Positions 25,201-60,190 are shown, numbered from the stretch's first letter. The stretch is 64,000 nt of DNA from an uncultured Muribaculaceae bacterium (GCA_964619545.1 CAZUED010000003.1:163-64162), one strand, 5' to 3'. Notes: a model not told the origin generated them from the sequence alone. Translations and numbers: made by a program.

Positions 25201-26348
25201 AGATCGCTGAAGGCCTGACAATCGAAGGCGGTATTGGCAGCGTAAAGCCATTTATTGGTAAAAAGCTGACAGCCGAAGTTTTTGAAGGTATCCGCCCATC
25301 TGATATGAAAAAGATTCAGGTCAAAAGCAAAGAAGCCGCAGAAAAATTGGAAGAGTTGCGTGAACAAAATGCAATAACTTTGAAAAACTTGAACGAAAAG
25401 GCCGACGGGGAAGTTGCGCGCGTGACCGAAAGCAACTCGCTTAATGCAGGTGTATTGAAAGAAGTCAAAGTTTATATCGCGCATAAAATGAAACTGCAAC
25501 CCGGCGATAAAATGGCTGGCCGTCACGGAAACAAGGGTATCGTTTCCAAGGTTGTGCCGATTGAAGATATGCCACACATGGAAGATGGAACGCCGGTTGA
25601 TATAGTTTTGAATCCATTGGGTGTGCCCAGCCGTATGAACATTGGTCAGGTATTAGAAGTTCACTTGGGTATGGCCGCACGTGAATTAGGTAAACAAATC
25701 GGCGAAGTGCTGGATGAAGTAAAGGCAAAGCGCGCCGTGACCGATGACTTGCGCACAATGATTGGCAAAATCTATGGCAAGGATGTTACTCAGCAACTTG
25801 AAAAGATGACTGACACTGATGTTCGCGCCCAGGCTGCATTATTGCGCAGTGGTGTATCAATGGCAACACCGACATTTGACGGGGCTATGCCGGAAGACAT
25901 CAAAAAAATGTTAAAGATGGCAAAGCTTCCAGAGAGCGGACAATTCACTTTGTATGATGGAATGACCGGTGAAAAATTTGCACGACCAGTAACAGTTGGT
26001 GTTATGCATATGTTAAAGCTGCATCACTTGGTGGATGAAAAAATCCATGCGCGTTCAGTAGGCAGCTATTCTTTGGTTACACAACAGCCTTTGTCCGGTA
26101 AAGCGCACAATGGTGGACAGCGTTTGGGTGAAATGGAAGTCTGGGCGCTGGAAGCGCACGGCGCGGCCCACCTGATTAAAGAAATGCTGACCGTTAAATC
26201 GGACGACATTGCGGGCAAAAACAAGATGTATGAAACCATAATCAGCGGAAGCTATGACATTCAAACAGGCACGCCCGAGGCATTTAATGTCTTGACCCGT
26301 GAACTGCGCGGACTGGGCTTGGCTATGACACCGCGAAAGCTAGATTAA
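22209..26348 (+). CDS. rpoB: RNA polymerase beta subunit
   Basis: Start at MAVIQKF after AGGAG. The track ORF begins 72 nt upstream, inside the leader. Confidence 0.97.
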   Translation: MAVIQKFRKYFGKSFLKTPLRDLVEIQYDSYRDFLQENVAPNARRNVGLQNVFKSAFPIKDYAGIADLEFVEYTLDKPLYNVKECMLRNMTYSARLKLKLKLIIWDVAENGKKTLRDIKDQEIFMGEVPLMTERGTFVSSGVERVIVSQMHRAQGVVFGLTKEAKTADATNATYTARIIPERGSWIDFEEAKGVIYVRIDRKRKIPASVLLRALPAASDEKKFESDPRRAAVSGMTDVEILSEFYKKISLSFDGKFWIGETADFIELGNYRLNYDLLDVKSKKPIAEKGERITAKKWEKLVAANKEFAITKESVIGEYLFDPLANGGETLFPSATEITEEILADFEKLDVKNISIISIDNMFYGAHMRNTLAASKTTTRDEALIEIYNVIRPGERPTPEAAAALFAHQGFDSSYYDLSAVGRFKMNKRLKIDSGKKPEDERLLSKQDFLATLKTLANIIDRKDVIDDIDNLSNRRVRTVGELLEQQFRIGMARIERLVREHLASPNISNMKPQDVINVKPLTALVAEFFGTSQLSQFMDAYNPLAELEHKRLISAMGPGGLNRDRAGIDVRDVHPTHYGRLCPIHTPEGANIGLINHLASYARVNPYGFIETPYYIVKNGKITEEIVYLTADEETGHRIAQGNTATNSDGKISEEVVTARVDGEFVKIPREEIDLIDVAPRQVVSIAPGLIPFIENDDANRALMGSNMQRQAIPLMRVDAPTIGTGIEREVARDSRTGKVAKHSGVVESVDANRIVVKCMNSRNVVTGVDIYNLEKFQKSNSETMIHQKPLVKVGDRISAGDIIADGASMNYGELALGKNVLVAFVPWRGYNFEDSIVISEKISRDDVFTSIKIVEKEFKARDTQLGPESFTRDIPNVGEEALKNLDESGIIYIGSHVKQGDILVGRVSPKSESLLTPEEALLRSIFGEKALSVKDTSMRVGPNEEGVVIGVNILTRHGVKKDERTQMIELQKIEQINKNREEEIAILERGFAAQAFQIAEGLTIEGGIGSVKPFIGKKLTAEVFEGIRPSDMKKIQVKSKEAAEKLEELREQNAITLKNLNEKADGEVARVTESNSLNAGVLKEVKVYIAHKMKLQPGDKMAGRHGNKGIVSKVVPIEDMPHMEDGTPVDIVLNPLGVPSRMNIGQVLEVHLGMAARELGKQIGEVLDEVKAKRAVTDDLRTMIGKIYGKDVTQQLEKMTDTDVRAQAALLRSGVSMATPTFDGAMPEDIKKMLKMAKLPESGQFTLYDGMTGEKFARPVTVGVMHMLKLHHLVDEKIHARSVGSYSLVTQQPLSGKAHNGGQRLGEMEVWALEAHGAAHLIKEMLTVKSDDIAGKNKMYETIISGSYDIQTGTPEAFNVLTRELRGLGLAMTPRKLD

Positions 26349-26426
26349 ATGATAAATGGCGAAAGATGAGTGTTTGCATTCATCTTTCATCACATATCAT
26401 TCATCATTATTCAAGGAGCAAAATAA

Positions 26427-29400: not shown

Positions 29401-30551
29401 CAATGGTTGAAAAGGGAACAAAGATTGCAGAATGGGATGCGTACGCTAATCTGATTATTGCTGAAAAAGATGGAAAAGTTCAGTTGTCAGATATGATTGA
29501 GAATATTTCATTCTCGGAAAGTATTGATCCTATGACTGGAATAACCAGTCGCAAAATCTTGAACTGGAAAAACCAGACCAAGAAAGCATTGCAGCCGAAA
29601 GTATCGCTTTTGGGTGCAAATGGCGCAGTGGTTTCTTTGGGTGGTAAGAAATTGGCAGAATATATGTTGCCGATATACTCGGTTCTGAACGTTGCCGAAG
29701 GTGCATCCGTTCGTGCTGGCGATGTCTTGGCGCGTATTCCAATTGAAAGCAAAAAAGTTCATGACATTACCGGCGGATTGCCACGAATCAATGAACTGCT
29801 GGAAGTTCGTCATCCAAAGAATCCAGCGATACTGGCCGAAATTGATGGCGAGATTGAAATCGAAGACAGCGGAAAGAATAAAGTTGTTGTCCGTATTGTT
29901 CCTACCGAGGGAACGCCAGTGGAATATATGATTCCAAAGGGCGAACCACTATTAGTTCGCAGCGGTGACATTGTGAAAAAAGCCGATATGTTGGTCAGTG
30001 GTGATCCAGTCGCACAAGACATCTTGCGCATATTGGGTCAAAAAGCATTGGCGACATTTATGGTGAATCAAATCCAACAAGTTTATCGCTTGCAGGGCGT
30101 GGTTATCAACAATAAGCACATCGAAATCTTGATACGTGAAATGACCAGACGTGTAGAGGTCTCGGAACCGGGCGACACCCAGTTCTTGATGGGACAGGTT
30201 GTTGATCGTGTTGATTTCGAAGAAGAAAACGAACGCGTAGCACGTGAAAATGGGCGCCAAGCCGAAGCCAGCCAAATTTTGGTTGGATTGACCCGTGCCA
30301 GCTTGACCAGCCGTTCATTTATATCTAACGCGGCTTTCCAACAGACAACAAAGATCTTGGTGGATGCAGCGATAAATGGTGCAACCGATAAATTGGCAGG
30401 TATAAACGAAAACCTTATTGTTGGTCGCTTGATACCAGTTGGTACGGGCTCTTATGTTCGTCGAGTTCGCGAAATTGCCAAAGAGGAAGAGCGTCAGGAA
30501 AAACTGGCCAGCGAAAACTCTGGTGGTGAACAGCAAATGTTGGGAATATAA
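26427..30551 (+). CDS. rpoC: RNA polymerase beta' subunit
   Basis: NADFDGD motif and Zn-binding Cys residues. Confidence 0.97.
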   Translation: MTNMLQKIFGQIETKEQFDALQIKIASPEEILSWSHGEVKKPETINYHSLKPESDGLFCQQIFGPSKDYECACGKYKRVKFRGVVCERCGVEVGSSSVRRERMGHIKLATPVSHFWFMREGKIATLLNNMPQKKLEQVIYYDAYIVTEPGLTKLKLYDVISEDEYQEALTEFGDGAFHVGIGADGVRSVIANLDMGDERTRLRQELSETKSEAKRKGIIKHLKLVEAFMDSKTEPAWMLPDVLPVIPPDMRPLVTLEAGHVASSDLNDLYRRVIIRNNRLKKLIDLRAPEIIVRNEKRMLQEAVDALFDNGHKSRPLVSQNRQKLKSLSDSLLGKQGRFRMNMLGKRVDYSGRSVIVSGPSLKLHQVGLPKSMALELFKPFVYARLLAGDYANTLKTARKMVEAGEDIVWEMLEKVIYQHPVLLNRAPSLHRLSMLAFEPILIEGKAIRLHPLVTKGFNADFDGDQMSVYVPISLEAQLEARTLMLSSNNVLLPANGEPVIVPSQDMVLGVYYLSLVNGEHNEKSPRFASMDEIYMALNAKTITLHTPIIARYHAAEGTQTVKTTAGRMILGELLPKKPGMPFDLVNQEMPVGKIKSLLATTYERCGDKDMIALADNLKNTGFEQAARSGISIGFDDIKIPEEKQEIIANATTQTEEIETQYQNGLISRKEKYNKIVDMWHGVTNRLADLAFSNLRKSEGDNWNSISMMQASGARGSKTQIQQLAGMRGMMMKPDGSIIEVPIISNFKEGLSMAEYFTSTHGARKGMSDTALKTANAGYLTRRMVILAQNTFITEHDCGTDESITAKPVFDGSMLSISLGDVVLGRTAAQDVVNPGTGELIVKRGDLITKADSKKINDSGLGSIEIRSGLTCKSNGLCAKCYGMDLSRGTLVHVGEAVGVIAGQSIGEPGTQLTLRTFHVGGIASSGSGSNFIEAPMNGRLELIDADLVTNSAGKNIVVSRNSKIAVTDNKGNHLFTAKLPYASWLIVKDGAMVEKGTKIAEWDAYANLIIAEKDGKVQLSDMIENISFSESIDPMTGITSRKILNWKNQTKKALQPKVSLLGANGAVVSLGGKKLAEYMLPIYSVLNVAEGASVRAGDVLARIPIESKKVHDITGGLPRINELLEVRHPKNPAILAEIDGEIEIEDSGKNKVVVRIVPTEGTPVEYMIPKGEPLLVRSGDIVKKADMLVSGDPVAQDILRILGQKALATFMVNQIQQVYRLQGVVINNKHIEILIREMTRRVEVSEPGDTQFLMGQVVDRVDFEEENERVARENGRQAEASQILVGLTRASLTSRSFISNAAFQQTTKILVDAAINGATDKLAGINENLIVGRLIPVGTGSYVRRVREIAKEEERQEKLASENSGGEQQMLGI

Positions 30552-47805: not shown

Positions 47806-48145
47806 AAACACTTATCGCGCGGGACTTTTTGCTGAGTTTTTGGCACGAGTTTATTTGCGTATTCATGGATTCAGTATTGTAAAATCCAGATACATAACGG
47901 GTCAACATACCAAACGTGCAGAAATTGATATAATTGCAATACGCGGAAATTTAATTGCGTTTATAGAGGTTAAAAATCGACCAAATGTCCGCACTGCATT
48001 TGATGCGATCGGTCATACCCAGGCGTTAAGGTTGCGACGTGCCGCCGAAACATGGATTGCAAAAAATCGTTGGCATGGTGATGCCAGATTTGATGTAATA
48101 GTTGTAACCCGTTTACATATTCGGTGGTTTAAAAACGCTTTGTAA
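47795..48145 (+). CDS. yraN: YraN/UPF0102 family endonuclease
   Basis: YRAGLFAEFLARVYL...EIDIIA...FIEVKNR. Start taken at MRSKNTY. Confidence 0.8.
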   Translation: MRSKNTYRAGLFAEFLARVYLRIHGFSIVKSRYITGQHTKRAEIDIIAIRGNLIAFIEVKNRPNVRTAFDAIGHTQALRLRRAAETWIAKNRWHGDARFDVIVVTRLHIRWFKNAL

Positions 48146-48228
48146 AATAAAATTTACATAATGGGTTTTTTAGTTTATAATTGCCCTGTTCTGCCAAGGC
48201 AGTTCTAAACCAATAAAGGAGAAAATAA

Positions 48229-48378
48229 ATGAAAAAAGCATTATTGTTGGGATTTGCAGTTTTAACATTGGCTGCTTGCACAGGTTCTTATAAATCTGGA
48301 AATTGCGAATATGATTTCTTGCTGCACAAAGACATCTCGATTTCCAAAGTAATTGGCAACGCAACAGGCGGCTGCTAA
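48229..48378 (+). CDS. Putative small lipoprotein (49 aa, MKKALLLGFAVLTLAACTG...)
   Basis: Not in the track. RBS AAAGGAG and lipobox LAAC, with a terminator following. Confidence 0.5.
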   Translation: MKKALLLGFAVLTLAACTGSYKSGNCEYDFLLHKDISISKVIGNATGGC

Positions 48379-48419
48379 AAATTAGAATAAATAAAACGCG
48401 GCGGTTGCCGCGTTTTATT

Positions 48420-48704
48420 TTATCACTGCTGATTTTATCAAGGATAAGTCTTCTTTAATTCCGTCTATTTTTAATTGCAGCTGACCAATACCCGATTCCA
48501 GAATTGTTGTTCTGTTTTCCAGCGTGGTTATGCGGGCATCAGATTTTTTATTTTTTCCATCTCTTCGTTTGACAGCATAGATTGCATATCAAATGCAGCT
48601 GCAATAAAAGATTGTTCTTGAATATCGTATGGGTTGGAAGTTTTTTTGTCAGCCAATTTCTTTTCAACAACTGCTATCAATTCTTTTTTATGTTTTTCAA
48701 ACAT
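48420..48704 (-). pseudogene. Disrupted coiled-coil protein gene, interrupted in a poly-A run
   Basis: MFEKHKKELIAVVEKKLADKK...EKIKN (58 aa) stops inside GAAAAAATAAAAAAT. The open frame continues in another frame (ITTLENRTTILESGIGQLQLKIDGIKEDLSLIKSAVIK). There is also an upstream in-frame TGA. Confidence 0.35.
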
Positions 48705-48819
48705 CCGAGTGGCATTTATAGATTCTGCAACTTTTTTTCAATCATCTGTAAGCACTAATGGCATAATTCATCCTTTGTAGTACAGGTCAATTATACTTTT
48801 AAATAATGAGTTTTCAATA

Positions 48820-49656
48820 TTAAATCCTAAACTCGGTTTTTGCCTGGACGGGACGCAAAGTTTGACCAAGTGGACGAACCGGGGCTGCGTTCAGGTCCAG
48901 CGCCCCAGCAATCGCGTCCAGACCGTCATCGTGCCCCGAATCGCCCATCGGCGTCCAACCCAGCATTTCAGACAGCAATGGAGTCGCCTGAATTCTTTGG
49001 TGGGCCCAAATACGACCCGTCGTCAGTAGTGGCTCTACCGCGTTCAGAATCCGAGATTCCTTGCGCGTGTGATTTATGATTTTTTGGATAACAACAGATT
49101 GGTCGTGTTTTTTTGCGACTTCGCGCAAAATCTCGGGCAAGGCGTTTCCCAGCCCATTTACTTCTATCCCGATTATATGCGCGCCATGTATTTTCATAAA
49201 TCCCAAAACTTTCTCGCACTGAGTCGCCAGTGGATGCAAATCATTGTCATCCACAATCAAGTACCGAACATCATGAATAAATGCGCGCCGATTTTTATCG
49301 TCTCGGTAAAGCAAGACACATACACTGGAATCGGCCCCTTTACGCCCGCCTGATGGATCCCAATAGCACGATACGCCCGTTATCAAAAATTCTTTATCAA
49401 TTCCCAGTTTCGCTGTGCGAGCATCAAACTCTCCGTCATAAAAATAAAGCGCGCCTGGATCCAGCCGCGCTTTATCTTCCGAAATATATTCCAGCATCAT
49501 TTGACTGGAAAAATGACGTGGTCCGACCGTTTCCCTTAATTCTTCTATTTTTTCCAGTGGAAAAATATCTGGCCATGCAGGTATGCCGCCAGAATCAATT
49601 ATCGGTAGGCGGAATAATTGGTATCCGCGTAAAAATGGCAAGGTCTGTTCATTCAT
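48820..49656 (-). CDS. Phage terminase large subunit, C-terminal nuclease-domain fragment
   Basis: RNaseH-like nuclease motifs (CYWDPSGG..D...VLLY..D...RAFIHDV.YLIVDD, GHDDGLDA). Confidence 0.6.
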   Translation of the reverse strand: MNEQTLPFLRGYQLFRLPIIDSGGIPAWPDIFPLEKIEELRETVGPRHFSSQMMLEYISEDKARLDPGALYFYDGEFDARTAKLGIDKEFLITGVSCYWDPSGGRKGADSSVCVLLYRDDKNRRAFIHDVRYLIVDDNDLHPLATQCEKVLGFMKIHGAHIIGIEVNGLGNALPEILREVAKKHDQSVVIQKIINHTRKESRILNAVEPLLTTGRIWAHQRIQATPLLSEMLGWTPMGDSGHDDGLDAIAGALDLNAAPVRPLGQTLRPVQAKTEFRI

Positions 49657-49726
49657 GGGAAAATAAAAAAAACGCGCTATGCGCGTCTGTTTGATGCCTC
49701 AATTATATCAAATTTTTCATAAAAAA

Positions 49727-51268
49727 TCAATCTAAAAATGGAACGTCAGCCATATCAGGCACTTCGGCATTACCATTGCTTGCGCTAGCAGGTGCAGAAT
49801 AAGATGGTTCTTCCGATTGATAACCTTCATCCAAATCATCAAACAAAGAATATTCCCCACTGAATTTCAGTTTAATCGTTTCTGGTTTTCCATGACGATT
49901 TTTACCGATAATCAATTCGGCCTTACCGCGTGATGCGTCCAGACGCTTGCGCCAATTGTCTGCCTTGTTGGTTGTAAATTTTTCGGAATGGTCACCGACA
50001 ACATCAGATGGATCGCGACCCTGCAAGTAATACTCTTCACGATAAGTGAACATAACAATGTCGGCATCTTGTTCAATAGACCCAGATTCGCGCAAGTCCG
50101 ACAGCAATGGTCGTTTGTCATCGCGTGATTCGACTGCGCGGGAAAGCTGAGACAGCGCGATAACCGGCGCATCCAATTCCTTGGCCAACATTTTCAGACC
50201 CCGGGTGATTTCTGATAATTCATTAACACGGCTGTCGTTTTTACGAAGAGTTGGTGACTGCATCAACTGCAAATAATCGATAACGATAAGTGCAATACCG
50301 CCATGCTTACGGGCAATACGGCGTGCGCGTGCGCGCATCATAGGGACACTCATCCCCGGGGTATCATCAACCAGCAAAGGAACATTAGATAGTGCATCAG
50401 AATACTGCGACATCCGCAGAAACTCTTGATCATTCAGGCTGCCGTTACGCATAGAACTGGATGGAATTTTCGCCTGGGACGACAGAACGCGAGCCGCCAG
50501 TTGAGATGCTGACATTTCAAGGCTGAAAAACACGACCGCGCCACGATACTTTTTATTTGCGCGATTTGCCATAATTGCGCTGGCCGCGTTAAAGGCAATA
50601 TTCATCGCAACCGTGGTCTTTCCCATAGCAGGACGACCAGCAATTATTACCAAATCAGACTTGTGCAATCCGCTGATAGATTTATCCAAATCACGCAGAC
50701 CTGTGGTCAGACCCGATAATTTTCCATCGGCCTTATAAGCAATTTCGGCTTCTTCTAATGCAACGCGAAGTGCCGCCCCCAGTGGAGATGCCCCGCGGTC
50801 GGACGATCCGGTGGTGGATAAATCAAACAGTTTTTGTTCGGCTATTTCTATTTGTCTGTCTACCGGATTGTCTAAATCTTCGACAAATGCCGAATCGGTA
50901 ATGTTTTGACCTATATTAATCAGGTGACGCCGCAAAGCATTATCATAAACTATTTTGGCATAGCTTTCTATATTTACAACAGATGCGCCGGCACTCGCCA
51001 GTTCTGACAAATACTCGACCCCGCCGACAGAATCAAGAACACCTTGTTGTGTCAGATAGTTTTTTGCCGTAATGATGTCAAATGGGATTCCGGCGGCGAA
51101 TTGCTTTTCGGCAAGTTTAAAAATCTCTTGGTGGGCGGGATGAGTAAAATGTTCAGAGTGTAAAAAATCGCTGACTTTTTCCAGTGCGCGGTTGTTCATC
51201 AAGACTGCTGCCAGCACGGCTTGCTCAGCTTCCAAATTAGTCGGTAAAGACTTGGGAGTAAAATCCAT
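49727..51268 (-). CDS. dnaB: Replicative DNA helicase DnaB
   Basis: N-terminal domain (LEAEQAVLAAVLMN) and Walker A (AGRPAMGKTT). No intein. Confidence 0.95.
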   Translation of the reverse strand: MDFTPKSLPTNLEAEQAVLAAVLMNNRALEKVSDFLHSEHFTHPAHQEIFKLAEKQFAAGIPFDIITAKNYLTQQGVLDSVGGVEYLSELASAGASVVNIESYAKIVYDNALRRHLINIGQNITDSAFVEDLDNPVDRQIEIAEQKLFDLSTTGSSDRGASPLGAALRVALEEAEIAYKADGKLSGLTTGLRDLDKSISGLHKSDLVIIAGRPAMGKTTVAMNIAFNAASAIMANRANKKYRGAVVFFSLEMSASQLAARVLSSQAKIPSSSMRNGSLNDQEFLRMSQYSDALSNVPLLVDDTPGMSVPMMRARARRIARKHGGIALIVIDYLQLMQSPTLRKNDSRVNELSEITRGLKMLAKELDAPVIALSQLSRAVESRDDKRPLLSDLRESGSIEQDADIVMFTYREEYYLQGRDPSDVVGDHSEKFTTNKADNWRKRLDASRGKAELIIGKNRHGKPETIKLKFSGEYSLFDDLDEGYQSEEPSYSAPASASNGNAEVPDMADVPFLD

Positions 51269-51371
51269 GTCTCAAACCATACAACACGAATTTTAATTTG
51301 CAATGATTTTTCTTGCTTTGTTATAAAAAAAAAACTACTCTGTTTGTCAATAAGAACAAGAGGATTCAGTC

Positions 51372-52388
51372 ATGGCATGGGAAGAAATCTGTTTTCCAAA
51401 TAACCTTAGAAATATAAGGTTGTCGCGCGGAATGCGTATGACCGAAGTCGCCAAAAAATCCGGCCTTTCGCTGTCAGCAATGTCCAAGGTTGAAAAGGGG
51501 GTGCGCCGGTTAAAACAAAGTCAACTGATGCAGCTTTGCACAATTCTGGACTGCAAGTTGGCCGACATCTTTATAAAGGCTGACGATGAAAAGGCTACCA
51601 AATGGCAATCTGAAATGCAACGTCGCTTGACTGAAAATGAAACCGCTGGTTTGAAGGTATTTGGTGCGGGGATACGGGTTTTACGCCGTGAAGTTGGTAA
51701 GACTATCGCCCAGGCGGCCCATGATGCTAAGATGACGCTAAGCGTATATCACAAGATAGAAACTGGCCAGCGAGAGGTTTATGAAAACGAAATAGAAAAT
51801 TTGGCAAAGGCAATGGGTAAATCGATTGATGAAATGTTCAAGGCAATCGCAGGACTTTATAATTCTGGTGCGCTGAACAGACAAATCGACAAGGCCGAAG
51901 AACGTGTTCGCGAAGCGCTGAAAGTTGGTAAGTCCGAATCTAATTTAGATATGGGCAGCGCGATTTATGGCGCAACGGTTTATGATTCTGTGCGGAAAAA
52001 TTTGGTTCCGGTATATGGAACCGCGAATGGAAAAAATATAGTATTTATGAAATCTGATGACAATATGCTGCCACCATTGCCAAAGATAAAAAGCGGCAGT
52101 GGGATATATGCTGTTCAGGCACCTGCTGGTCGGTTGGGACCGCTGTTTCCGCACAAATCACATTTGCTTGCAAATCCTGGTATAATGCCTGTGGCTGGTG
52201 ATTTAGCGGTTTTGTTTGATGATGATTACGAAAATATCGAGCCTCGTACCCAGGCGACCGCACGGATTGTCATGCTGAAAGAGGATAAAAATGGCACGCT
52301 AATCGGTGTTCAGTCTTATCCAGAAGAGAAAATACAGATAAAGAACGGCAAAAAGCGACTGCATAAAATTGTGCAGATTGTCTGTTAA
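51372..52388 (+). CDS. XRE-family regulator with two HTH domains and an S24/LexA-like C-terminal domain (phage-repressor-like)
   Basis: Two HTH_XRE segments. The C-terminal beta-rich domain resembles the CI/LexA C-terminal domain, but no clear Ser-Lys dyad was found. Confidence 0.65.
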   Translation: MAWEEICFPNNLRNIRLSRGMRMTEVAKKSGLSLSAMSKVEKGVRRLKQSQLMQLCTILDCKLADIFIKADDEKATKWQSEMQRRLTENETAGLKVFGAGIRVLRREVGKTIAQAAHDAKMTLSVYHKIETGQREVYENEIENLAKAMGKSIDEMFKAIAGLYNSGALNRQIDKAEERVREALKVGKSESNLDMGSAIYGATVYDSVRKNLVPVYGTANGKNIVFMKSDDNMLPPLPKIKSGSGIYAVQAPAGRLGPLFPHKSHLLANPGIMPVAGDLAVLFDDDYENIEPRTQATARIVMLKEDKNGTLIGVQSYPEEKIQIKNGKKRLHKIVQIVC

Positions 52389-52411
52389 TAATTTGTAAAA
52401 TAGAGAGAGAA

Positions 52412-53047
52412 ATGAGAGAACTGACTTCCATAATAGCGCAGCGCTTGTTGAACTTGTATCGCCAGGCTCATGTGATTGATGGCGGCTGGGCAGCTGTTAA
52501 TAAGGCATTGTTGGCCGAGGCAGATAATGAAGTTCTGGCCGATTTGCAAAAATTGCCGAACGGGGGAAAGTTGGTTCAGCATATAAAAAATTTGCAATCT
52601 GGAAAAACGGAAGTCAGCGGAATAGAACGCGAAGTTATACCATATGGTGGTAAGATGGACAGCGCGGTAAAGGCAACGCAAATTTCCAACAAGGATTTGA
52701 AAGAGTTAGAATCTGCGCTGGCAGAATTTCAATCAGACGAAGAACATATTGAAAAAATTAAAAATTTATCATTTGTTCAATCTTTTGGTGAAAAGTGGAT
52801 TTCCGGGGTTCGGTCATCATTATCTGGCAAGCCAGAGTTAGAGAAAAAATGGCTTGAAGTTTCCAGATCCGCACGGGCATATGATTTATGGAATAAAGCC
52901 TATGCCGTTTTAATTCCGCCAGTTTCGGACAGAGCACGTGCCGAGATTCAGGCAGAATTATCTGAATATGAAACTTATCTGCCGATGTTTGGCGAAGACG
53001 GAACGCAACTTTTATCGCGACTCCGCTCATTTGTAAGCAGTTTGTAA
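52412..53047 (+). CDS. Hypothetical protein
   Basis: ORF followed by a terminator at 53048-53075. Confidence 0.5.
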   Translation: MRELTSIIAQRLLNLYRQAHVIDGGWAAVNKALLAEADNEVLADLQKLPNGGKLVQHIKNLQSGKTEVSGIEREVIPYGGKMDSAVKATQISNKDLKELESALAEFQSDEEHIEKIKNLSFVQSFGEKWISGVRSSLSGKPELEKKWLEVSRSARAYDLWNKAYAVLIPPVSDRARAEIQAELSEYETYLPMFGEDGTQLLSRLRSFVSSL

Positions 53048-53074
53048 AAAAAACGCGGTGGTTCCCCGCGTTTT

Positions 53075-53731
53075 TTAATTTTCAACCTTATAAATTGTGT
53101 CAACTGCATGTGGTGTGCCGATATAAATCATGGTGCCGCTAGGGGAAAGAATAAAGTCCAGTTCCCGCAGACGCATGCGTAACATTTCTCGTTTTTGAGA
53201 AGTATTGCTGGTGTTGGGAACTTCCACGTCATCGCAGATAATCATATCGGCGCGCTGACCTGTTATATTTCCATGAATACCTTGGCAGACTACAGAAGGT
53301 TCCCGAATTCCAACTTGGCGCGAGATTGTAATTTTATGCATTCCCCATTCTTTTTTAACGTTTGGCAATAAATCTCGGCATTCTGGATGATTTTCCAGAA
53401 TATGTTTTATATGTGACACCATTCTTGATGCCAGATTGGATTCTGCAGAAAGAATAAGTATACGTGTTTGTGGTCTTATAGAAAGTACCCATGCGGCGAA
53501 AATGCCAACAACTGATGATTTTCCTGAATGTCTAAATGCCAATAAAAGCGCCCGACGGGGCGGATTTTCAAGGCTGTTTACCAGAAATCTCAAAATGTTT
53601 TTATGATGTGTTGGTGTTTCCATTCCCAGTATCTGGTTCCATGCATCTAAAAAATTTTTCGCGGATTCATAAAGTTCCATAATCATCAATACTTTCACTG
53701 GGGCCTGTATCTGCCGGGGTTCCATAATCAT
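53075..53731 (-). CDS. Phage terminase large subunit, N-terminal ATPase-domain fragment
   Basis: Walker A-like RHSGKSS, Walker B IICDDVE and the coupling motif IGTP. The fragment ends right after the ATPase domain. Confidence 0.65.
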   Translation of the reverse strand: MIMEPRQIQAPVKVLMIMELYESAKNFLDAWNQILGMETPTHHKNILRFLVNSLENPPRRALLLAFRHSGKSSVVGIFAAWVLSIRPQTRILILSAESNLASRMVSHIKHILENHPECRDLLPNVKKEWGMHKITISRQVGIREPSVVCQGIHGNITGQRADMIICDDVEVPNTSNTSQKREMLRMRLRELDFILSPSGTMIYIGTPHAVDTIYKVEN

Positions 53732-54215
53732 TTATCATTCGCGGCATGGCAGTACTCAGCACTGATAAAAGATTATTATAAAGCCCCAGTGCAGCGCCTC
53801 CACCAGTTTTATCTTCTATTAATTCTTTAATGACATCCATCTGATGCACGACATTGTCATGAATATTTTGCCACTGGGCAATACTGATTTCAACTGAGTT
53901 TAAATCTCGGAAAGCCTCTAGTATAAAATTAAAATCTGCGTTCAGGTTTTCGGGATCAATTTTTGCAGCTGGCTGATAATCGATAAAGCGGGATAGACTT
54001 ATCTTGCGAAATATATCTATACGAGAATTTTGCACGGGTGGATTTGCAAAAGAAATTATTCCACCAATCATATTCTCATCATATTGCAAATTATATTCAG
54101 TAGAATCCAAAATAACTTCATTGATTGCCACATGAACGTCTAATGGCTGAAAAAAAGGAAAAGCAAAGGCAAAGCAATATGCTTCGCCGTCACCGACATA
54201 AGAAATCTTGTACAT
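53667..54215 (-). CDS. Hypothetical phage-associated protein
   Basis: ORF sitting between the structural genes and the terminase. Confidence 0.4.
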   Translation of the reverse strand: MYKISYVGDGEAYCFAFAFPFFQPLDVHVAINEVILDSTEYNLQYDENMIGGIISFANPPVQNSRIDIFRKISLSRFIDYQPAAKIDPENLNADFNFILEAFRDLNSVEISIAQWQNIHDNVVHQMDVIKELIEDKTGGGAALGLYNNLLSVLSTAMPRMINDYGTPADTGPSESIDDYGTL

Positions 54216-54232
54216 TTTATAACCTTTGTTTG

Positions 54233-54580
54233 TCAGGCAATCAATCCATCCAGTCTGGAAATGAATGATTTCAACAGATTGGATTTTGGTGTTTTTATTT
54301 TATAAAGCTTGTCCAGATTGGATTTCTTTTTTTCATCAAATGGTTCTTCGGTTTCTTCACGCAGTCTTTTCAGAACAGCCTCTTCGGTCATTCCTTTATT
54401 TGTCATTCCTGCGCTGCCGTATTTTGCACGTTGTGCGGCTAATGTTTTTTTTACCAGATTGATTTTTGCTTTTTCATCCGCCGCAATTTTTTCTAAAATT
54501 CTTTTTCGTTCTGACACGTTTTCTTTTTTGTCTTGTTTTTGATTTAAGATGTCTGTGACATCTGATACAAGTTGTCCCAT
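54233..54580 (-). CDS. Hypothetical protein (K/E-rich)
   Basis: ORF. Confidence 0.4.
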   Translation of the reverse strand: MGQLVSDVTDILNQKQDKKENVSERKRILEKIAADEKAKINLVKKTLAAQRAKYGSAGMTNKGMTEEAVLKRLREETEEPFDEKKKSNLDKLYKIKTPKSNLLKSFISRLDGLIA

Positions 54581-54590
54581 TTTTTTCTCC

Positions 54591-56315
54591 TTAGATTAAA
54601 TACCAGCCTTCTACTGATATGCCCAGTATGCTTACAGGTAATGGTTCGCTACCCGATATAGTCCAAAGAGGACAGGTAGTATCGTCAATTGTTCCCAATG
54701 AACCTACAGAAACATCTCCGCAGTATCCAGGCGAGTCTACACCAAGTGCATCATTTGGAAGTTGTGCACGAACTGCATTTATAAATAAAGATTTGGTATT
54801 CAGGCATCGTGCGGAAATTTTATGCACTCGAATTTTTTTCGGAGCTCGTCCACTGGCGAATAAAGGCATCGCAGCAGCCGTATGTGAAAATCCGAATTGA
54901 CCAGAATCAAGAGTTTCTGCTGCTGAAAATTTTTCTATGAATACGCCTGATTCGCGCGCGACTATTACAAATGTTTCACCATTCAGCACAGCGACAGATT
55001 TGAATGATCCCAGTGTTTTGTAGATGCCCCAGGCAGAAATTTCCAATGCCGAGTTTTTATTCAGTACTGCCATGGAACCATCTGTCATCACCACAAACAA
55101 CTGGCGTGTTTTATCATTATATGCCAGATCCACGGGATGCTTCATCAAGTGACCGGAAATCGCGCACAAGTTTGGTGCATTGTAGTTTTCACCTAACTCA
55201 TCCATAATCATTTCTCTGATTTCGTTGCCACCTTTGGAAACAAAAATAGTGCTGCGGTCTATCTTTTGTGGCTGCAGATAAATCGAAGAAATACTTCCTG
55301 CATTGGTATGTTGTCTGATGTCCATGGATGATGGAGTTAATGGTTTTGCGCTGATTGCCCATTCGCCTGCTGTGGTTAAAATTTGTAAATTATCGCTGGA
55401 TACAACCGTGCAAATTTGTTGGCGTGCAGATGAAAGCAGTGTCAGAAAAATGGCTTGGTCATCCAATCCTGTTTCAGCATTAAAGTTTTGATGATCACCA
55501 ACGCATGACATCCAAACCCCACATGGCCACGCGCGCGAACCCCCAAATACCAATCGGTCCTGATGAAAAGTGATGCTGCGTGGCCATCCGCGGCGGACAC
55601 CAAATGCGGCTTCGCGCCAATCAGAAATTGCCGCACTGGGCAGCGAGTAAGTTCCATTAGTGTATGCAACGATAGTGGTAGAATTTACATACTCGTAAAT
55701 GACCCATTGCTTACCCATCAAGTAAAGTCTGCCATTGAGATTTTCAGGTGTCCAAAAAGCGGCACTGGCAGTAAAAGTAGCATAGTTATTCCCATTCGCA
55801 TTACTTGATACAGAAATTTTTATACCAGCTGCATCGTCAAATTTCATAAATGGCATATTTCGTGACATATCATCGTTTGTTGAAAAATCAAATGTGGACA
55901 GATAAAACGCGCCACCTGTTTTTTTCAGAACTCGTGGCTGAAAATCCTGATGCACGAAAATCATGGTATCAAAACGTTGCGCATATTGCATGTTACACAA
56001 TGCATCCGCGCCCCAAGGCGAGATCAAGGCCTGGACCATATTCTGACCATCATAAATTTTCATCTGACCATCAGAAATAGCCAGCATATAATTTTCTGAA
56101 TCGGAAATAGAAAAAGGAATCAAAATTGCACCATTTTTTGTCGCAGCAATCCGAATTGTTCCATTCCGCCGTGAAATAGCCCCCGATGCCAAGACATCCA
56201 TATTTTCCATACGCGACAAGCCGCGGGATGAAACATCCAAATCACCACGCGCAAAAAATTCTGGCGATACTTCCCCCAATGCGAAAGAGTTCTGATTGTG
56301 AATAAATTTTCCCAT
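54591..56315 (-). CDS. Putative phage structural protein, positioned like T7 gp12 (tail tubular protein B)
   Basis: 574-aa beta-rich ORF immediately downstream of the gp11-like gene. Confidence 0.35.
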   Translation of the reverse strand: MGKFIHNQNSFALGEVSPEFFARGDLDVSSRGLSRMENMDVLASGAISRRNGTIRIAATKNGAILIPFSISDSENYMLAISDGQMKIYDGQNMVQALISPWGADALCNMQYAQRFDTMIFVHQDFQPRVLKKTGGAFYLSTFDFSTNDDMSRNMPFMKFDDAAGIKISVSSNANGNNYATFTASAAFWTPENLNGRLYLMGKQWVIYEYVNSTTIVAYTNGTYSLPSAAISDWREAAFGVRRGWPRSITFHQDRLVFGGSRAWPCGVWMSCVGDHQNFNAETGLDDQAIFLTLLSSARQQICTVVSSDNLQILTTAGEWAISAKPLTPSSMDIRQHTNAGSISSIYLQPQKIDRSTIFVSKGGNEIREMIMDELGENYNAPNLCAISGHLMKHPVDLAYNDKTRQLFVVMTDGSMAVLNKNSALEISAWGIYKTLGSFKSVAVLNGETFVIVARESGVFIEKFSAAETLDSGQFGFSHTAAAMPLFASGRAPKKIRVHKISARCLNTKSLFINAVRAQLPNDALGVDSPGYCGDVSVGSLGTIDDTTCPLWTISGSEPLPVSILGISVEGWYLI

Positions 56316-56842
56316 TAGAACCTCGTTGATATAAGTGAAAAGTCAGGTATGTCATTGCTGGGTGACACAGTGCTGTCTATGAATTTTGCCGCGCGCAGCT
56401 CGGATTCAAACAATGCTGCAATGGTGCGTAATAAATTCTGGTCGCCGGTCAATGGCATACAGAATTCCCGTGCAAGTTGCAATGCAGCGACATTTGAAAA
56501 ATATGAAGGATAATTTTCTGGTCCCATTCGCACAACAGCAGTGATTGAAATTTTATCGGCCGGTGCAGAAATTCTGTTCCCGCTAGTTTGATAAAGCAAG
56601 CAATCACAATCCAAAACACGAAGAATTTCTACTGGCAAAAGAAAATCACCATCTGTGGTCTTGCTTAAATTGAATTTTTTCTGGGCAAATTTCCACGGAT
56701 GCGACGCCAGCAAAGAATCAATCGTAGTATCAAATAGGGTCTTTGCGACTTTGGCTGCAGCACTATCGTCGTTAAAAGACTGAATGGGATTTTCACCAAT
56801 TTTCAATAAAGCAATAGAACACAGATCAATTTTAGTAAGCAT
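56315..56842 (-). CDS. Tail tubular protein A-like (T7 gp11-like)
   Basis: N-terminal pattern IALLKIGENPIQSFNDDSAAAKVAKTLFDTTIDSLLASHPWKF resembles the gp11 N-terminus (recalled from memory, not searched). Confidence 0.45.
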   Translation of the reverse strand: MLTKIDLCSIALLKIGENPIQSFNDDSAAAKVAKTLFDTTIDSLLASHPWKFAQKKFNLSKTTDGDFLLPVEILRVLDCDCLLYQTSGNRISAPADKISITAVVRMGPENYPSYFSNVAALQLAREFCMPLTGDQNLLRTIAALFESELRAAKFIDSTVSPSNDIPDFSLISTRF

Positions 56843-56865
56843 GGGGAACTCCTGACTTTTAACTT

Positions 56866-57150
56866 TTATGCCAAAGCACTGGTTGTTACATTCTGGGATG
56901 TGATGTTAATTTTTTTGATTACGGTGTTGTCGGAAGCATTGATAATTACAATGTCGCCAATATTCATCAAAGTGCGGACCGGATTAAAAAAACCAGTAGT
57001 ACTGATGGTCGCAATACTTTCTTGGGCGGCATAGTGCCACAGAGTAAATCCATTTGCATACGCAATAACGGACAAGTTTTTGTTTTGGAAATACATGAAA
57101 AACTCCATTGTTTGAGGGATGAAGGAGGAAGTTTGAGGTAAAAAAATCAA
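56866..57150 (-). CDS. Hypothetical phage protein
   Basis: ORF between the capsid and tail-tube genes. Confidence 0.35.
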   Translation of the reverse strand: MIFLPQTSSFIPQTMEFFMYFQNKNLSVIAYANGFTLWHYAAQESIATISTTGFFNPVRTLMNIGDIVIINASDNTVIKKINITSQNVTTSALA

Positions 57151-57188
57151 TAAAACTAAAACCTAATCCTTCATCCCTCATTCTTTAA

Positions 57189-58004
57189 TTATTCGGCGCA
57201 ATTGATTTTGACGATCCCGTCCTGATCAATCAGCACGCTGCCCTGGGACATGCTGTTGCTGATAAAGTGCGCAGCGCGTTCGCCATTCCAAAAGATGTCA
57301 GATTTGACTTCTTGGCCACATGCATGACCGATAGCGGACGAGTGATACATAAAGCACTTACGCATATTGGTACCGGTTGGCAGGCCGTTATGCATAATCC
57401 AATTGATGCCCAACCACTTACGCAGTTCGAATCCACCAATCAAAGGTGTTTCGTTGCCGACGTATTCAGCCGAAACGAATTCATCCATAGACAAAAGCTC
57501 ATTCCACTGATGAACACCGACGACGCAGAATCTGCGACCATCGTCAGGAACGTCTTTAGAGTTCAATGCTTCGACCGCGGACAAAATAATTTCTTTGGTC
57601 AAAGCGGCAGTTCCATCTCCGACAGCGGTTGTTGCATTGGCCATAGATGTTATAATCAGCTCGTCAGTCTTGCGACCCAATGCATATGCACCTGCGCTTG
57701 CGACAACCCGACGTTCATCAATGTTGATTTTTAATTCATCCAAAGCATCAACCCAATCGCCCGCATAATAGTCCTGCAATACGCATTCAACAGGCTCGTG
57801 GTCCAAGTTCATGACAGGAACTAATCCGTGGCGAGATTTGGTAGTGGCAGTACCACGACCAACTTTTTGGAAAGTTGTACTGCTGCCTATAACGCCGGAT
57901 TTACTGCGTATTGTGTTGCGAAGCTTTGTCCCCATTTGTTGATAAGCAAGATGAACATCGGCCTCGAATTGTTTTACGAATATCTGGTCTATTGATTCAG
58001 ACAT
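57189..58004 (-). CDS. Major capsid protein, T7 gp10-like
   Basis: Several local pattern matches to gp10 as recalled (FVKQFEADV..., RRFCVVG, FMYHSSAIG). Strong RBS AAAGGAGA. Confidence 0.5.
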   Translation of the reverse strand: MSESIDQIFVKQFEADVHLAYQQMGTKLRNTIRSKSGVIGSSTTFQKVGRGTATTKSRHGLVPVMNLDHEPVECVLQDYYAGDWVDALDELKINIDERRVVASAGAYALGRKTDELIITSMANATTAVGDGTAALTKEIILSAVEALNSKDVPDDGRRFCVVGVHQWNELLSMDEFVSAEYVGNETPLIGGFELRKWLGINWIMHNGLPTGTNMRKCFMYHSSAIGHACGQEVKSDIFWNGERAAHFISNSMSQGSVLIDQDGIVKINCAE

Positions 58005-58311
58005 AGTTTCTCCTTTTTGATTGAAAAAAACCGGACATTATTGTCCGGTCATAAATAATTTGTTTTTCAGGTTCCGCGCAAAAGCGCGCCGTAAAAACAA
58101 ATATGCGGGTTCGTCAGAATTGTATGTCTTTTTCTGATGCTATGTTTTGCCTTATTATATACCAATTGTCCTTAAATCCGTTTTAGTGGTAGTTGCGAGA
58201 AAACAGCACATTACAGCACTTCATAGGTTGTAATGGGGCATTTTAGCACTAGAAAAGCGGTAATAAAAAATCCCGCTTTGCGGGATTTTTTATTTCAATA
58301 ATGTAATTACA

Positions 58312-58800
58312 TTATTTCTTTTTAGCAACTGGCTTTTTCGCCGGGGCTTTCTTAGCAACAGGCTTTTTAGCAGCTGGTTTTTTCGCAGCTGGCTTTTTCG
58401 CCGGGGCTTTCTTAGCGACAGGCTTTTTGGCAACCGGCTTTTTAACCGCAACTTTCTTAGCAGCAGGTTTTTTAGCAGCAGGTTTTTTAGCAGCAGGTTT
58501 CTTTGCCATTGGCTTTTTAGCAACAGGTGCTTTTACTGCCAATTTCATAACTTTTTTTGCAGCTGGTTTTTTTGCTGGAGCTTTCTTAGCAACAGGCTTT
58601 TTAGCGGCAACTTTTTTTACAGCTGGTTTTTTTGCAACTGCTTTTTTCACAGCTGGTTTTTTAGCAGCAGGTTTTTTAGCAGCTGGTTTTTTTACAACGG
58701 GCTTTTTAGCAGCTGGTTTTGCAGTTGCTTTCTTTGCCGCTGGTTTCAAGAATGAAAATGCCATTCTCTTCTCCTTCCTTTTTTTGTTTTTATAGAACAA
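58312..58800 (-). CDS. Histone H1-like Lys/Ala-rich protein (AKKP-type tandem repeats)
   Basis: About 25 PAAKK/PVAKK repeats and strong DNA-level tandem periodicity. An alternative start exists at M13 (58764). Confidence 0.7.
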   Translation of the reverse strand: MFYKNKKRKEKRMAFSFLKPAAKKATAKPAAKKPVVKKPAAKKPAAKKPAVKKAVAKKPAVKKVAAKKPVAKKAPAKKPAAKKVMKLAVKAPVAKKPMAKKPAAKKPAAKKPAAKKVAVKKPVAKKPVAKKAPAKKPAAKKPAAKKPVAKKAPAKKPVAKKK

Positions 58801-58876
58801 AAAATTTTTGTTCTTGATTACATTTTATCTGAAACAAAAAAATTAGTAAAGCGAAAAGAAAAAAATTACATAAAAT

Positions 58877-59575
58877 TTATGAATATAATTTTTTGAAACC
58901 AGTTTCTATTTTACGAATATATTCTGAATCATGATCACGCCAATATTTTGGATCTTTCATCATGTTGCGTAATTCATTATCAGATAGTTTTTCTGATGCA
59001 TGATTTCCAGTTGCAACATCTGGTTCCATTGATTGCATCATTTTATAAATGCTTTGGATTCCCTGGGGTGTAGAGCACAATGACTCAAATGCATCAGATG
59101 GTAAAAACTTTTCACCGAATGCATTGATAGCCTGCATGGCATCTTTCATCTTTTCTTCGCTACCGAAAAAATTTTGTAATGTGGCGATTGATTCTGACTG
59201 GGCGCGCAAAGAGAAAATTTCTGACAATGCTGGGGATAAAAATTCTTCAGCTATCGAATAAATTTTTTCAACTTGCTTTGGAGTCAATCCTGCATCAAAA
59301 AATTTTTTGCGAATCGTTTCATCATCAAACATCGGATTTGATGGATATTCGTCAGCAGTCTTTGGAACCCCCAATGTGCGCATAAATTTTTCACGTGAAT
59401 TTTCGTCGGCATCTTCGCCTGGGATGGATACCATGGTCCCGATTTTCTTTTCCAGTTCGGAATAAGACTTAATCAAAGCATCGCTGTTTAATGTTCCATC
59501 ATCGTTTTGGAATTTTTCTGGAATTTGCATTCTTTCCCCTTTGAGTTGATTTGCGTAAGAAATATATCCCCGCAA
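58877..59575 (-). CDS. Putative scaffolding protein (acidic, helical), in the gp9-like position
   Basis: Inferred from composition and its position upstream of the capsid gene. Confidence 0.35.
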   Translation of the reverse strand: MRGYISYANQLKGERMQIPEKFQNDDGTLNSDALIKSYSELEKKIGTMVSIPGEDADENSREKFMRTLGVPKTADEYPSNPMFDDETIRKKFFDAGLTPKQVEKIYSIAEEFLSPALSEIFSLRAQSESIATLQNFFGSEEKMKDAMQAINAFGEKFLPSDAFESLCSTPQGIQSIYKMMQSMEPDVATGNHASEKLSDNELRNMMKDPKYWRDHDSEYIRKIETGFKKLYS

Positions 59576-59720
59576 GAGTAAAAATTGAATTCATAGTCGT
59601 AAAAACATTTTCATCACCAACAAGATATGCCGTGATTGCGGATAAAATTCCAACGCCGGAAATTATGTAAGTCCGTTGTCCTGCAAAGAATCCGCCACTT
59701 AAAATTTTTGACATTCGCAT
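59499..59720 (-). CDS. Small two-TM protein, a possible holin
   Basis: 73 aa with two hydrophobic segments and a charged C-terminus. Adjacent to the cell-wall hydrolase. Confidence 0.3.
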   Translation of the reverse strand: MRMSKILSGGFFAGQRTYIISGVGILSAITAYLVGDENVFTTMNSIFTLAGIYFLRKSTQRGKNANSRKIPKR

Positions 59721-59737
59721 AAAAAACTCCGTTCAGG

Positions 59738-60190
59738 TTATTTATAGAAAAGCAGCCCATCAATATCTGCAATACTTCCTTTATCTGTTGCCCAATCTGG
59801 CAAAATGTCTTCGCGATGAAATCGAACTGCGCTACGAACAGAATCAGGCAGTTTCCCATTAATCATTCTTTTTAAGACACGCAAACACATTTGGAATTTT
59901 GGGTCATCTTCGGAAATTAAAAGATCGCTGTGGCGGGAAGATTCTTTTTGCAAACATTCAAATAAAGATTCGTCCGCTGCAATACAAGAAAAAGGCTGCA
60001 TAGATTGTTGATAAATATTTCCAATCATAGACGCCATGGCTTCAACCGCTGGCAAACTTGACGTGCGCGTTTCGGCATAAATAATTTTTCCCAGTTGGAC
60101 AAGTATTGTTTTTTCATCCTGAAACTCATTACGAGGCATTGTTTGCATTCGGACTTCCTTTGTATAAGAAAGACCCGCGCAGCAATGCAC
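59738..60190 (-). CDS. Cell wall hydrolase, SleB/Hydrolase_2 family
   Basis: AETRTSSL...QFSC...RFHREDILPDWA pattern. Confidence 0.65.
   Translation of the reverse strand: MHCCAGLSYTKEVRMQTMPRNEFQDEKTILVQLGKIIYAETRTSSLPAVEAMASMIGNIYQQSMQPFSCIAADESLFECLQKESSRHSDLLISEDDPKFQMCLRVLKRMINGKLPDSVRSAVRFHREDILPDWATDKGSIADIDGLLFYK

Follow-up and report, generated by a model that had tools for sequence, protein, structure and literature searches.

How does a phage-derived packaging gene come to hold a cellular-type replicative helicase gene between its two ends, and what becomes of the enzyme? This question is raised by a stretch of 64,000 nucleotides (nt; hereafter the window) from an uncultured Muribaculaceae bacterium (GCA_964619545.1, CAZUED010000003.1:163-64162). 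A sequence-only reading of the window had claimed that, between positions 48820 and 53731, the large subunit of a terminase is split into an ATPase open reading frame (ORF) at 53731-53075 and a nuclease ORF at 49656-48820. Here we show that these two ORFs together make up a single large terminase (TerL) of T7 type; we designate its N-terminal part TerL-N and its C-terminal part TerL-C. The arrangement is a clade-wide, selected feature, best read as a domesticated phage cluster combined with a gene in pieces, and the system in this particular genome is probably already broken. The literature searched contained neither this cluster nor a terminase divided in this way.

Two ORFs Encode One T7-Type Large Terminase

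All five ORFs of the region, the two terminase halves and the three between them, were found where the sequence-only reading had placed them. TerL-N (53075-53731, minus strand, 218 amino acids (aa)) matched phrog_38 (terminase large subunit) at positions 270-458 of 760 (E = 1e-40), Pfam Terminase_6N, and the NCBIfam model termin_lrg_T7 (NF033889) at positions 3-189 of 500 (E = 9e-67). It also aligned to residues 11-211 of a solved T7-type terminase structure (8dgc_E). The motifs that had been quoted for this ORF were present as Walker A (FRHSGKSS), Walker B (MIICDDVE) and motif III (GTPH) of an ASCE ATPase. They align with those of the intact homologues and of 8dgc_E, as expected of a T7-type terminase.

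TerL-C (48820-49656, minus strand, 278 aa) matched phrog_38 at positions 481-710 (E = 5e-39), Pfam Terminase-T7_RNaseH-like (PF22530), and termin_lrg_T7 at positions 323-500. A sequence search of TerL-C against the PDB gave no match. The top Foldseek match of its AlphaFold model was 8dgc_E, the chain of a T7-type (PhiV-1) terminase (E = 1e-10), followed by the nuclease domains of the RB49, P22, Sf6 and SPP1 terminases. The acidic residues expected of an RNaseH-like nuclease are present and invariant (D100, E165, D243, D244 and D247). The motifs quoted earlier for this ORF (CYWDPSGG, LIVDD and GHDDGLDA) likewise occur in it and align with the intact homologues.

The joined halves (218 + 278 = 496 aa) are colinear with five intact homologues of 477-505 aa, and nothing is lost or duplicated in the alignment. 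Since both halves match consecutive positions of the same profiles and are colinear when joined, the claim of one terminase divided over two same-strand ORFs in the correct order is borne out; the two ORFs belong to the same terminase families. A T7-type terminase is one polypeptide of about 450-600 aa; here it is two ORFs lying 3.4 kb apart.

In an exhaustive database search, the short proteins that matched TerL-N formed a single cluster with it. At identities under about 53%, the matches were mostly full-length terminases of 450-580 aa, which match TerL-N over their first 200 or so residues, and the shorter matches of low identity look like fragments. The intact relatives that were found were all single proteins of 450-580 aa, and the nearest T7-like phage terminases are 37% identical. 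An exact-sequence look-up of TerL-N gave no match because gene callers had picked another start codon. The true start of TerL-N is probably a few codons downstream of the ORF start, since the ORF overlaps the upstream gene for a 182-aa protein.

The Break Lies Inside the ATPase Domain

The gene is broken ten residues past motif III of the ATPase (GTPH..DTIY / ..FLRGY), in an indel-rich loop whose length varies and which is best explained as a variable surface loop of the large terminase. Because the break falls at this point, TerL-C also carries the end of the ATPase domain. Residues 1-60 of TerL-C are the last part of that domain and contain the invariant residues F8, L9, P18, G24, W28, F32, G45, R47, F49 and Q52-L55, whereas residues from about 65 to 260 form the RNaseH-like nuclease. 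In the AlphaFold model of TerL-C alone, residues 1-60 did not fold by themselves (low pLDDT, 39-66), and residues 65-260 were modelled as a confident nuclease domain. The claim that TerL-N stops after motif III therefore stands, about ten residues past the motif; the break is not at a domain boundary. Likewise, the assignment of the second ORF as the nuclease applies to residues 65-260 and fails for the first 60 or so.

Each half has its own ends. In all lineages examined, the stop codon of TerL-N lies 2-8 codons after DTIY[KR], and TerL-C has its own ATG, 5-15 codons before PFLRGY. The terminators claimed for both junctions were confirmed. A bidirectional intrinsic terminator at 53048-53074, read directly as aaaacgcggggaaccaccgcgtttttttt, is a 27-nt hairpin that occupies the entire gap between the convergent stops of TerL-N and the gene for a 211-aa protein. 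At the other junction, an intrinsic terminator after dnaB (49688-49670, minus strand; hairpin and T-run) lies 14 nt upstream of the TerL-C start. A site resembling a strong promoter was observed at 49730-49702 (TTGATT, 17 nt, TATAAT preceded by TG); the dnaB terminator follows it immediately, and then the TerL-C ATG.

There is no sign of splicing or rearrangement at the split terminase. No group I or group II intron reached the Rfam gathering score in the window, where the Rfam scan returned tRNAs and 5S rRNA only. The intervening ORFs encode DnaB, a helix-turn-helix (HTH) regulator and a helical protein, in place of an intron, intein or homing endonuclease. A split intein was considered and rejected, because the halves align up to the break without spare sequence; TerL-N has at most eight residues beyond its last terminase-aligned position. 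Short direct repeats at the insert boundaries, for which the sequence-only reading had proposed a search, did not rise above chance level, and direct and inverted repeats at the cassette junctions gave only short, low-identity matches of the same kind. No recombinase gene was found in or beside the cassette.

These observations bear on whether an intact terminase is rebuilt on demand, by excision or inversion of the cassette in particle-producing cells or by RNA splicing. The skin element in sigK is a precedent for rebuilding a gene by excision, and loss of dnaB would be harmless in a cell about to lyse. There is also a formal parallel in herpesvirus UL15, where about 3.5 kb with antisense genes is removed (PMC3079670). 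However, the lack of a recombinase gene, junction repeats and intron families speaks against such rejoining, as do the conserved stop and start of each half and the terminators that flank the cassette. Moreover, the layout of the cassette varies by lineage (dnaB flipped, RecG inserted) while the halves are kept. We regard on-demand rejoining as very improbable.

The Split Is Old and Shared by a Clade

Fifteen loci from relatives (about 12 lineages; L001-L011, L041 and L097-L099) were fetched with flanks of 10 kb. The dnaB gene adjoins a terminase half in all 15 loci whose DnaB is at least 67% identical to that of the window (67-87%), and it is nested between both halves in 13 of the 13 loci on contigs that reach far enough. 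In contrast, terminase genes are absent within 10 kb of dnaB in all of the about 70 loci with DnaB of at most 52% identity. Among database homologues, the 120 closest to TerL-N are 185-224 aa long, and the 120 closest to TerL-C are 236-402 aa, nearly all of them 256-314 aa. Half-length proteins make up hundreds of clusters at 90% identity. Where a source is named, these proteins come from metagenome-assembled genomes (MAGs) labelled Alphaproteobacteria, Rickettsiales or Proteobacteria, and the readable isolate or contig names of the fetched loci point to rumen, deer and probably termite-gut samples.

Judged from these loci, the split arrangement is old and fixed across the clade and is not a recent insertion. 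Insertion, inversion and a naturally bipartite terminase had been offered as alternatives; the comparison with relatives favors the last, given that the split is clade-wide and under purifying selection. Because the conserved pair in the relatives is itself terminase, the outcome that the sequence-only reading had named against itself, a standard pair unrelated to terminase, did not appear.

The layout of the cassette differs within the clade. In the majority layout (seven lineages), TerL-N is followed by the 211-aa gene, the HTH regulator gene, dnaB and TerL-C, and all three genes of the cassette point in one direction, opposite to that of the terminase. In the subclade of the window (the window, L004, L005 and L097-L099), dnaB alone is inverted onto the terminase strand. 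Thus, dnaB is on the minus strand of the window as had been claimed, but it is opposite to the terminase in most of the clade; on this comparison its orientation here is a derived local inversion, and the antiparallel layout is the ancestral one.

Two further observations concern the layout. In the majority layout (L001 13971-13979 and equivalents), the start codons of dnaB and TerL-C are divergent and about 7 nt apart, so that each promoter must lie within the coding sequence of the other gene. In L006 (1072-3150), whose isolate name Nt197P3bin44 suggests termite gut, recG lies between TerL-C and dnaB; beyond dnaB, this short contig shows neither the regulator gene nor the 211-aa gene nor TerL-N.

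Both Halves Are under Purifying Selection

The ratio of nonsynonymous to synonymous divergence (dN/dS) was estimated by the Nei-Gojobori method for pairs with finite dS. The values were 0.04-0.10 for TerL-N, 0.09-0.15 for TerL-C, 0.02-0.10 for the capsid protein, 0.03-0.17 for the tube proteins, 0.04-0.10 for the regulator and 0.06-0.13 for the flanking lipB, all of which are rough because synonymous sites are near saturation in most pairs. DnaB gave the lowest values of the region (0.02-0.05, in pairs without L004). Walker A, Walker B, motif III and the acidic residues of the nuclease are invariant across the relatives. As estimated from these alignments, both halves are shown to be under purifying selection similar to that on flanking housekeeping genes, and the low dN/dS implies that they are not pseudogenes.

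The Genes between the Halves

As the sequence-only reading had claimed, the 3.4 kb between the halves contain dnaB, a repressor-like gene (the double-HTH regulator) and a hypothetical gene (the 211-aa protein).

dnaB: This gene (49727-51268, minus strand) encodes a full-length replicative helicase of 513 aa with the DnaB and DnaB_C domains (PF00772, PF03796; E = 1e-98). The protein passes the alphaproteobacterial replicative-helicase model NF006606 (607.5 bits, cutoff 540) and TIGR00665 (500.8 bits, cutoff 385), and fails the phage_DnaB model TIGR03600 (411, cutoff 499). Its best matches outside the clade are on alphaproteobacterial genome or MAG contigs, at 44-52% identity. By these matches, dnaB is shown to be a cellular-type alphaproteobacterial replicative helicase gene. 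It had been called the cell's DnaB, and it is most likely the working copy: the family models support this, and deletions in relatives spare the gene. A single DnaB locus was retrieved in each of eight species-representative assemblies, a weak count, since the scan consisted of six exact peptide patterns. No dnaB neighbors in common with outgroup alphaproteobacteria were found that would point to the ancestral location of the gene.

A different origin would follow if the cassette were the replication or lysogeny module of the ancestral phage, with dnaB phage-derived and either a second copy or a xenologous replacement. The gene does sit in phage DNA beside that of a CI-like double-HTH regulator, and phages carry DnaB-family helicases about 42% identical to that of the window. 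In addition, a regulator homologue and a gene with the N-terminus of the 211-aa protein occur elsewhere, beside conjugation-like genes. However, the model scores, with the alphaproteobacterial equivalog matched over its full length, and the alphaproteobacterial sources of the nearest outside relatives argue for a cellular gene. So do the low dN/dS of DnaB and the deletions that remove phage genes and spare dnaB; besides, a phage module would not normally lie within the terminase reading frame. We consider a phage origin of the cassette unlikely.

Regulator: The gene at 51372-52388 (plus strand) encodes a 338-aa protein with two XRE-type HTH_3 domains (E = 2e-16). The XRE part of the earlier annotation, XRE/S24-like, therefore holds. 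The C-terminal domain is beta-rich with a sequence pattern reminiscent of S24/LexA, and Pfam gave no match to Peptidase_S24 (PF00717). The position equivalent to GDSM reads (K/G)RLG, so that Leu occupies the catalytic Ser site in all orthologs. The S24-type domain is accordingly unproven, and would be catalytically dead in any case.

211-aa protein: The third cassette gene (52412-53047, plus strand) encodes an all-helical protein without a family match. The protein is restricted to this clade and has no recognizable fold relative.

The virome contig MT835708, in which a homologue of the regulator lies among conjugation-like genes, did not clarify the origin of the cassette. This contig (L087) comes from a study of the human faecal virome that also yielded two other contigs labelled 'Bacteriophage sp.', as it is itself: MT838907 (L086), with a related capsid module, and MT835812 (L088), with an alphaproteobacterial-type DnaB. 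At least L087 and L088 look like bacterial DNA in the virome fraction.

The Cluster and Its Chromosomal Setting

Both terminase ORFs lie in a minus-strand run of phage-like genes at 48.8-60.2 kb of the window. The cluster of about 14 kb consists of head, short-tail, packaging and lysis genes and is T7/pelagiphage-like. In relatives, the conserved flanking genes lipB and yraN bracket the whole of it. The part upstream of TerL-N (53667-60190, minus strand) was assigned by Pfam and PHROG matches and is colinear with L004, L001 and L097. In gene order, all on the minus strand, it encodes a cell-wall hydrolase (59738-60190), a T7-type scaffold (58877-59575), a basic (KPAAKK)n repeat protein between scaffold and capsid (58312-58800), the major capsid protein (57189-58004; Phage_capsid_2, E = 5e-69), a small protein (56866-57150), tail tubular A (56315-56842) and tail tubular B (54591-56315). 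A 115-aa protein and then the 182-aa protein are encoded between tail tubular B and TerL-N.

No integrase, phage polymerase or primase was called in the loci, and dnaB was the sole replication gene called there. A T7-like phage would require a far larger set of genes than this. The absence of integrase and phage replication genes, the size of about 14 kb, the fixed site and the purifying selection together make a signature like that of a gene transfer agent (GTA): an integration-free phage-like cluster at a fixed chromosomal site, inherited vertically and kept by selection. From this signature we infer that the cluster is a domesticated GTA-like particle system of podovirus type and not a prophage. 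A GTA would need all of its head, portal, tail and packaging genes, and the window falls short of this, since the genes for portal, GH108 lysozyme and Bbp19 have been deleted there.

Several observations on the cluster and its surroundings stand apart from the terminase. The protein encoded at 58312-58800 consists of about 150 aa of lysine-rich (KPAAKK)n repeats (15-nt period, about 27 copies) and keeps its position in relatives. It recalls the DNA-binding tails of histone H1/AlgP type, and could be an internal head protein that condenses DNA. After Bbp19, loci with identical TerL-N differ in gene content (L001 17200-19088; L003 17062-19044; absent in L002). These variable, fiber-like genes encode 178 and 429 aa, or 660 aa, or are missing, and they vary at strain level. 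An Mtd_N-like gene lies nearby (L002 17637-18113), and the pattern resembles turnover of receptor-binding proteins. Relatives with an intact terminase (L090, L092 and L095; 45-50% identity) also occur in small T7-like clusters, directly beside the host genes topA and fur. The orders of their genes suggest a single gene circle that has been circularly permuted in different ways, and a wider family of chromosomal T7-like clusters may exist.

The window itself is bacterial chromosome, with a 5S rRNA gene, three tRNA genes and other cellular-looking genes, as well as two very long ORFs of 1,403 and 1,374 aa at 22137-30551. At about 48000-53000, the cumulative GC skew reaches its maximum and gene orientation turns from mostly plus to mostly minus. 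Both features may simply mirror the strand of the genes; alternatively, they may mark a switch point related to replication.

Deletions in the Window and in a Close Relative

Comparison of the window with L097 and L004 by blastn revealed a deletion scar at 48555-48809. About 255 nt of unrelated sequence, which opens a 58-aa ORF, replaces 3.28 kb of the near relatives (L097 12498-15777). The lost block comprises the genes for portal, GH108 lysozyme, a MORN protein and Bbp19, as well as the 5' portion of an 81-aa gene, whose final 44 codons remain at 48418-48549 (minus strand; tblastn, 97.7% identity to residues 38-81 of L004 p81). A terminator at 48420-48389 follows this remnant; the 81-aa gene ends the cluster in relatives. 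The same deletion junction is present in an independent Logan assembly of run SRR8925824 (L089). Near relatives with a complete cluster, in the 90% TerL-N cluster of the window, number more than 100 contigs at about 86% DNA identity; by this comparison the 3.28-kb deletion is strain-specific. With the portal block lost, the copy in the window is probably defunct and unable to build particles.

L005, the closest species-representative relative, has suffered separately. One deletion (L005 636-964) fuses capsid codon 85 to TerL-N codon 192. At L005 5226-5490, there is a portal deletion of its own, with a different left boundary and nearly the same right boundary as that of the window. L005 nevertheless keeps the cassette and an intact TerL-C with all catalytic residues. 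Deletions in both genomes thus erode the phage genes on either side, and dnaB, the regulator gene and the 211-aa gene are spared.

A Two-Polypeptide Terminase Is the Favored Explanation

We favor, with a probability of roughly 0.55, the explanation that the two polypeptides reassemble by fragment complementation and that dnaB, a cellular-type gene, was lodged between them by an old rearrangement. A T7/pelagiphage-like cluster between lipB and yraN would have been inherited vertically in a clade of uncultured alphaproteobacteria from gut, rumen and termites. Early in this clade, the cassette of dnaB, the double-HTH regulator gene and the 211-aa gene would have lodged in the large terminase gene, and the terminase would thereafter have been made as TerL-N, the ATPase core up to motif III, and TerL-C, the last ATPase elements and the nuclease. 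TerL-N would receive the final strand and the lid of its ATPase domain from TerL-C, and the two would rejoin non-covalently into a working packaging enzyme. On this account, DNA-packaging particles of GTA type are still produced from the cluster, or were until recently. In the subclade of the window, dnaB alone would then have flipped, and the strain in the window would also have deleted the portal block.

Several observations weigh against this explanation. No small terminase and no ejection proteins of the T7 gp14-16 type were recognized in the cluster, and tblastn found no portal gene anywhere in the window. No Shine-Dalgarno sequence is visible at the TerL-C start in the subclade of the window and L004; together with the terminator 14 nt upstream, this makes expression of TerL-C uncertain in that subclade, where it may depend on terminator read-through. 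The dN/dS values are only rough, for the reason given above. In L004, dnaB has TAA where the window has TCA (Ser338; L004 13458-13460), so that the gene is called as two pieces of 337 and 157 aa; if not an error of sequencing, this is a genuine nonsense variant of a gene presumed to be essential. Finally, the window lacks the portal and L005 lacks the genes from capsid to TerL-N, which suggests either that the subclade is losing the system or that TerL-C has another role.

The loss of the system could be taken further: the insertion may have inactivated the terminase of a prophage, leaving ORFs and a cluster that are functionless and have not yet accumulated stops. Such a decaying remnant fits the portal block missing from the window, the loss of capsid through TerL-N in L005, the lack of recognized small terminase and ejection proteins, and the TerL-C start without an obvious ribosome-binding site. 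It is difficult to reconcile with halves that are open in all lineages examined, although these have diverged to synonymous saturation with dN/dS of 0.04-0.15, or with invariant catalytic residues, the hundreds of clusters of half-length proteins and the complete cluster kept in more than 100 contigs of close relatives. A functionless relic is therefore unlikely.

The other branch, a different role for TerL-C, corresponds to retention of the halves for a host function, for example TerL-C as a RuvC/RNaseH-like nuclease acting with DnaB or RecG. Its linkage to dnaB would then have a functional basis and be no accident. The TerL-C fold is shared with RuvC, and TerL-C stands beside dnaB in every arrangement, including that of L006 with RecG between and no TerL-N seen. 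In L005, TerL-C stayed intact when TerL-N was lost. On the other hand, L005 and L006 are each known from a short single MAG contig, conservation is equally strong for TerL-N, capsid, tube and portal in most lineages, and the invariant residues in the first 60 positions of TerL-C make sense only within an ATPase domain. We judge a host function to be improbable.

A bolder form of the two-polypeptide explanation is that the clade runs a podovirus-type GTA whose motor consists of two polypeptides divided within the ATPase fold, and that the split holds a dedicated regulator gene and the sole replicative helicase gene of the cell. We advance this tentatively and think it doubtful. If it were true, dnaB and the particle genes would be physically interlocked in their transcription, ancestrally in antisense, which could couple replication shut-down to particle production or could protect the cluster from deletion. 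More generally, the persistence of the cassette could be neutral, could reflect protection from deletion by an essential gene, or could reflect a transcriptional interlock with dnaB.

If the two halves cooperate, they would represent a natural split of a viral packaging ATPase within its catalytic fold and would offer a handle on the communication between the ATPase core and the lid and nuclease. Very few domesticated systems of phage particles are known, and the cluster would extend them by a T7-like lineage from gut bacteria that are abundant but uncultured. It would also be a notable example of phage-derived DNA in which an essential replication gene has become fixed, which bears on how domesticated elements resist deletion and on a possible coupling to the cell cycle.

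Comparison with Known Systems

Among phages, the nearest relative is a 5-kb human faecal virome contig with a capsid protein of 64% identity. It has a normal phage gene order (portal, scaffold, capsid, tube A, tube B), despite the related capsid. Pelagibacter phage Hodr (capsid 46%) has the capsid, portal, tube and Bbp19 in common with the cluster. Hodr was rejected as a model for the unsplit gene, since its terminase is of another type.

The cluster resembles RcGTA, BaGTA and FpGTA in being a small phage-derived set of structural and packaging genes that lacks integrase and phage replication genes, keeps a fixed site, passes vertically and is under purifying selection. FpGTA of Faecalibacterium was reported in 2026 as the first podovirus-like GTA-like element (PMC12946183), and BaGTA is associated with a phage-derived helicase and run-off replication (PMC2697382). 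We found no podovirus-like GTA-like element other than FpGTA in the literature. In contrast to these GTAs, the present cluster is of T7/pelagiphage-like podovirus ancestry and has a split terminase and a cellular-type DnaB.

The terminase itself agrees with T7-type TerL (gp19; NF033889, PHROG 38) in its ATPase motifs, nuclease fold, acidic residues, order and joined length. Unlike gp19, it consists of two polypeptides, is broken within the ATPase domain and has 3.4 kb of cellular-type genes between its parts. The DnaB matches the alphaproteobacterial models (NF006606/TIGR00665) over its full length and above their cutoffs, as the alphaproteobacterial helicase does; here, however, the gene lies within a phage-derived gene, whereas no fetched locus outside the clade has a terminase within 10 kb.

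Phage genes in pieces are known from the nrdA gene of Aeromonas phage Aeh1, which is split by a homing endonuclease gene, and from the T4 topoisomerase genes for gp39 and gp60. Interrupted terL genes have been documented in Twort-like and Bastille-like phages (PMC5618024, PMC11878797). Such phage genes still yield a functional enzyme, and they are the precedent for the proposed reassembly of TerL-N with TerL-C. The present case is alike in that the gene of an essential enzyme is interrupted by foreign DNA; it differs in that the interruption is a cassette of cellular-type genes and not an intron, an intein or an endonuclease gene. Herpesvirus UL15 consists of two exons about 3.5 kb apart with antisense genes between them, and is rejoined by mRNA splicing (PMC3079670). 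It resembles the ancestral layout of the clade, in which a terminase ATPase/nuclease gene is divided by genes on the opposite strand. However, spliceosomal machinery is absent in bacteria, and the ORFs described here have their own stop and start codons.

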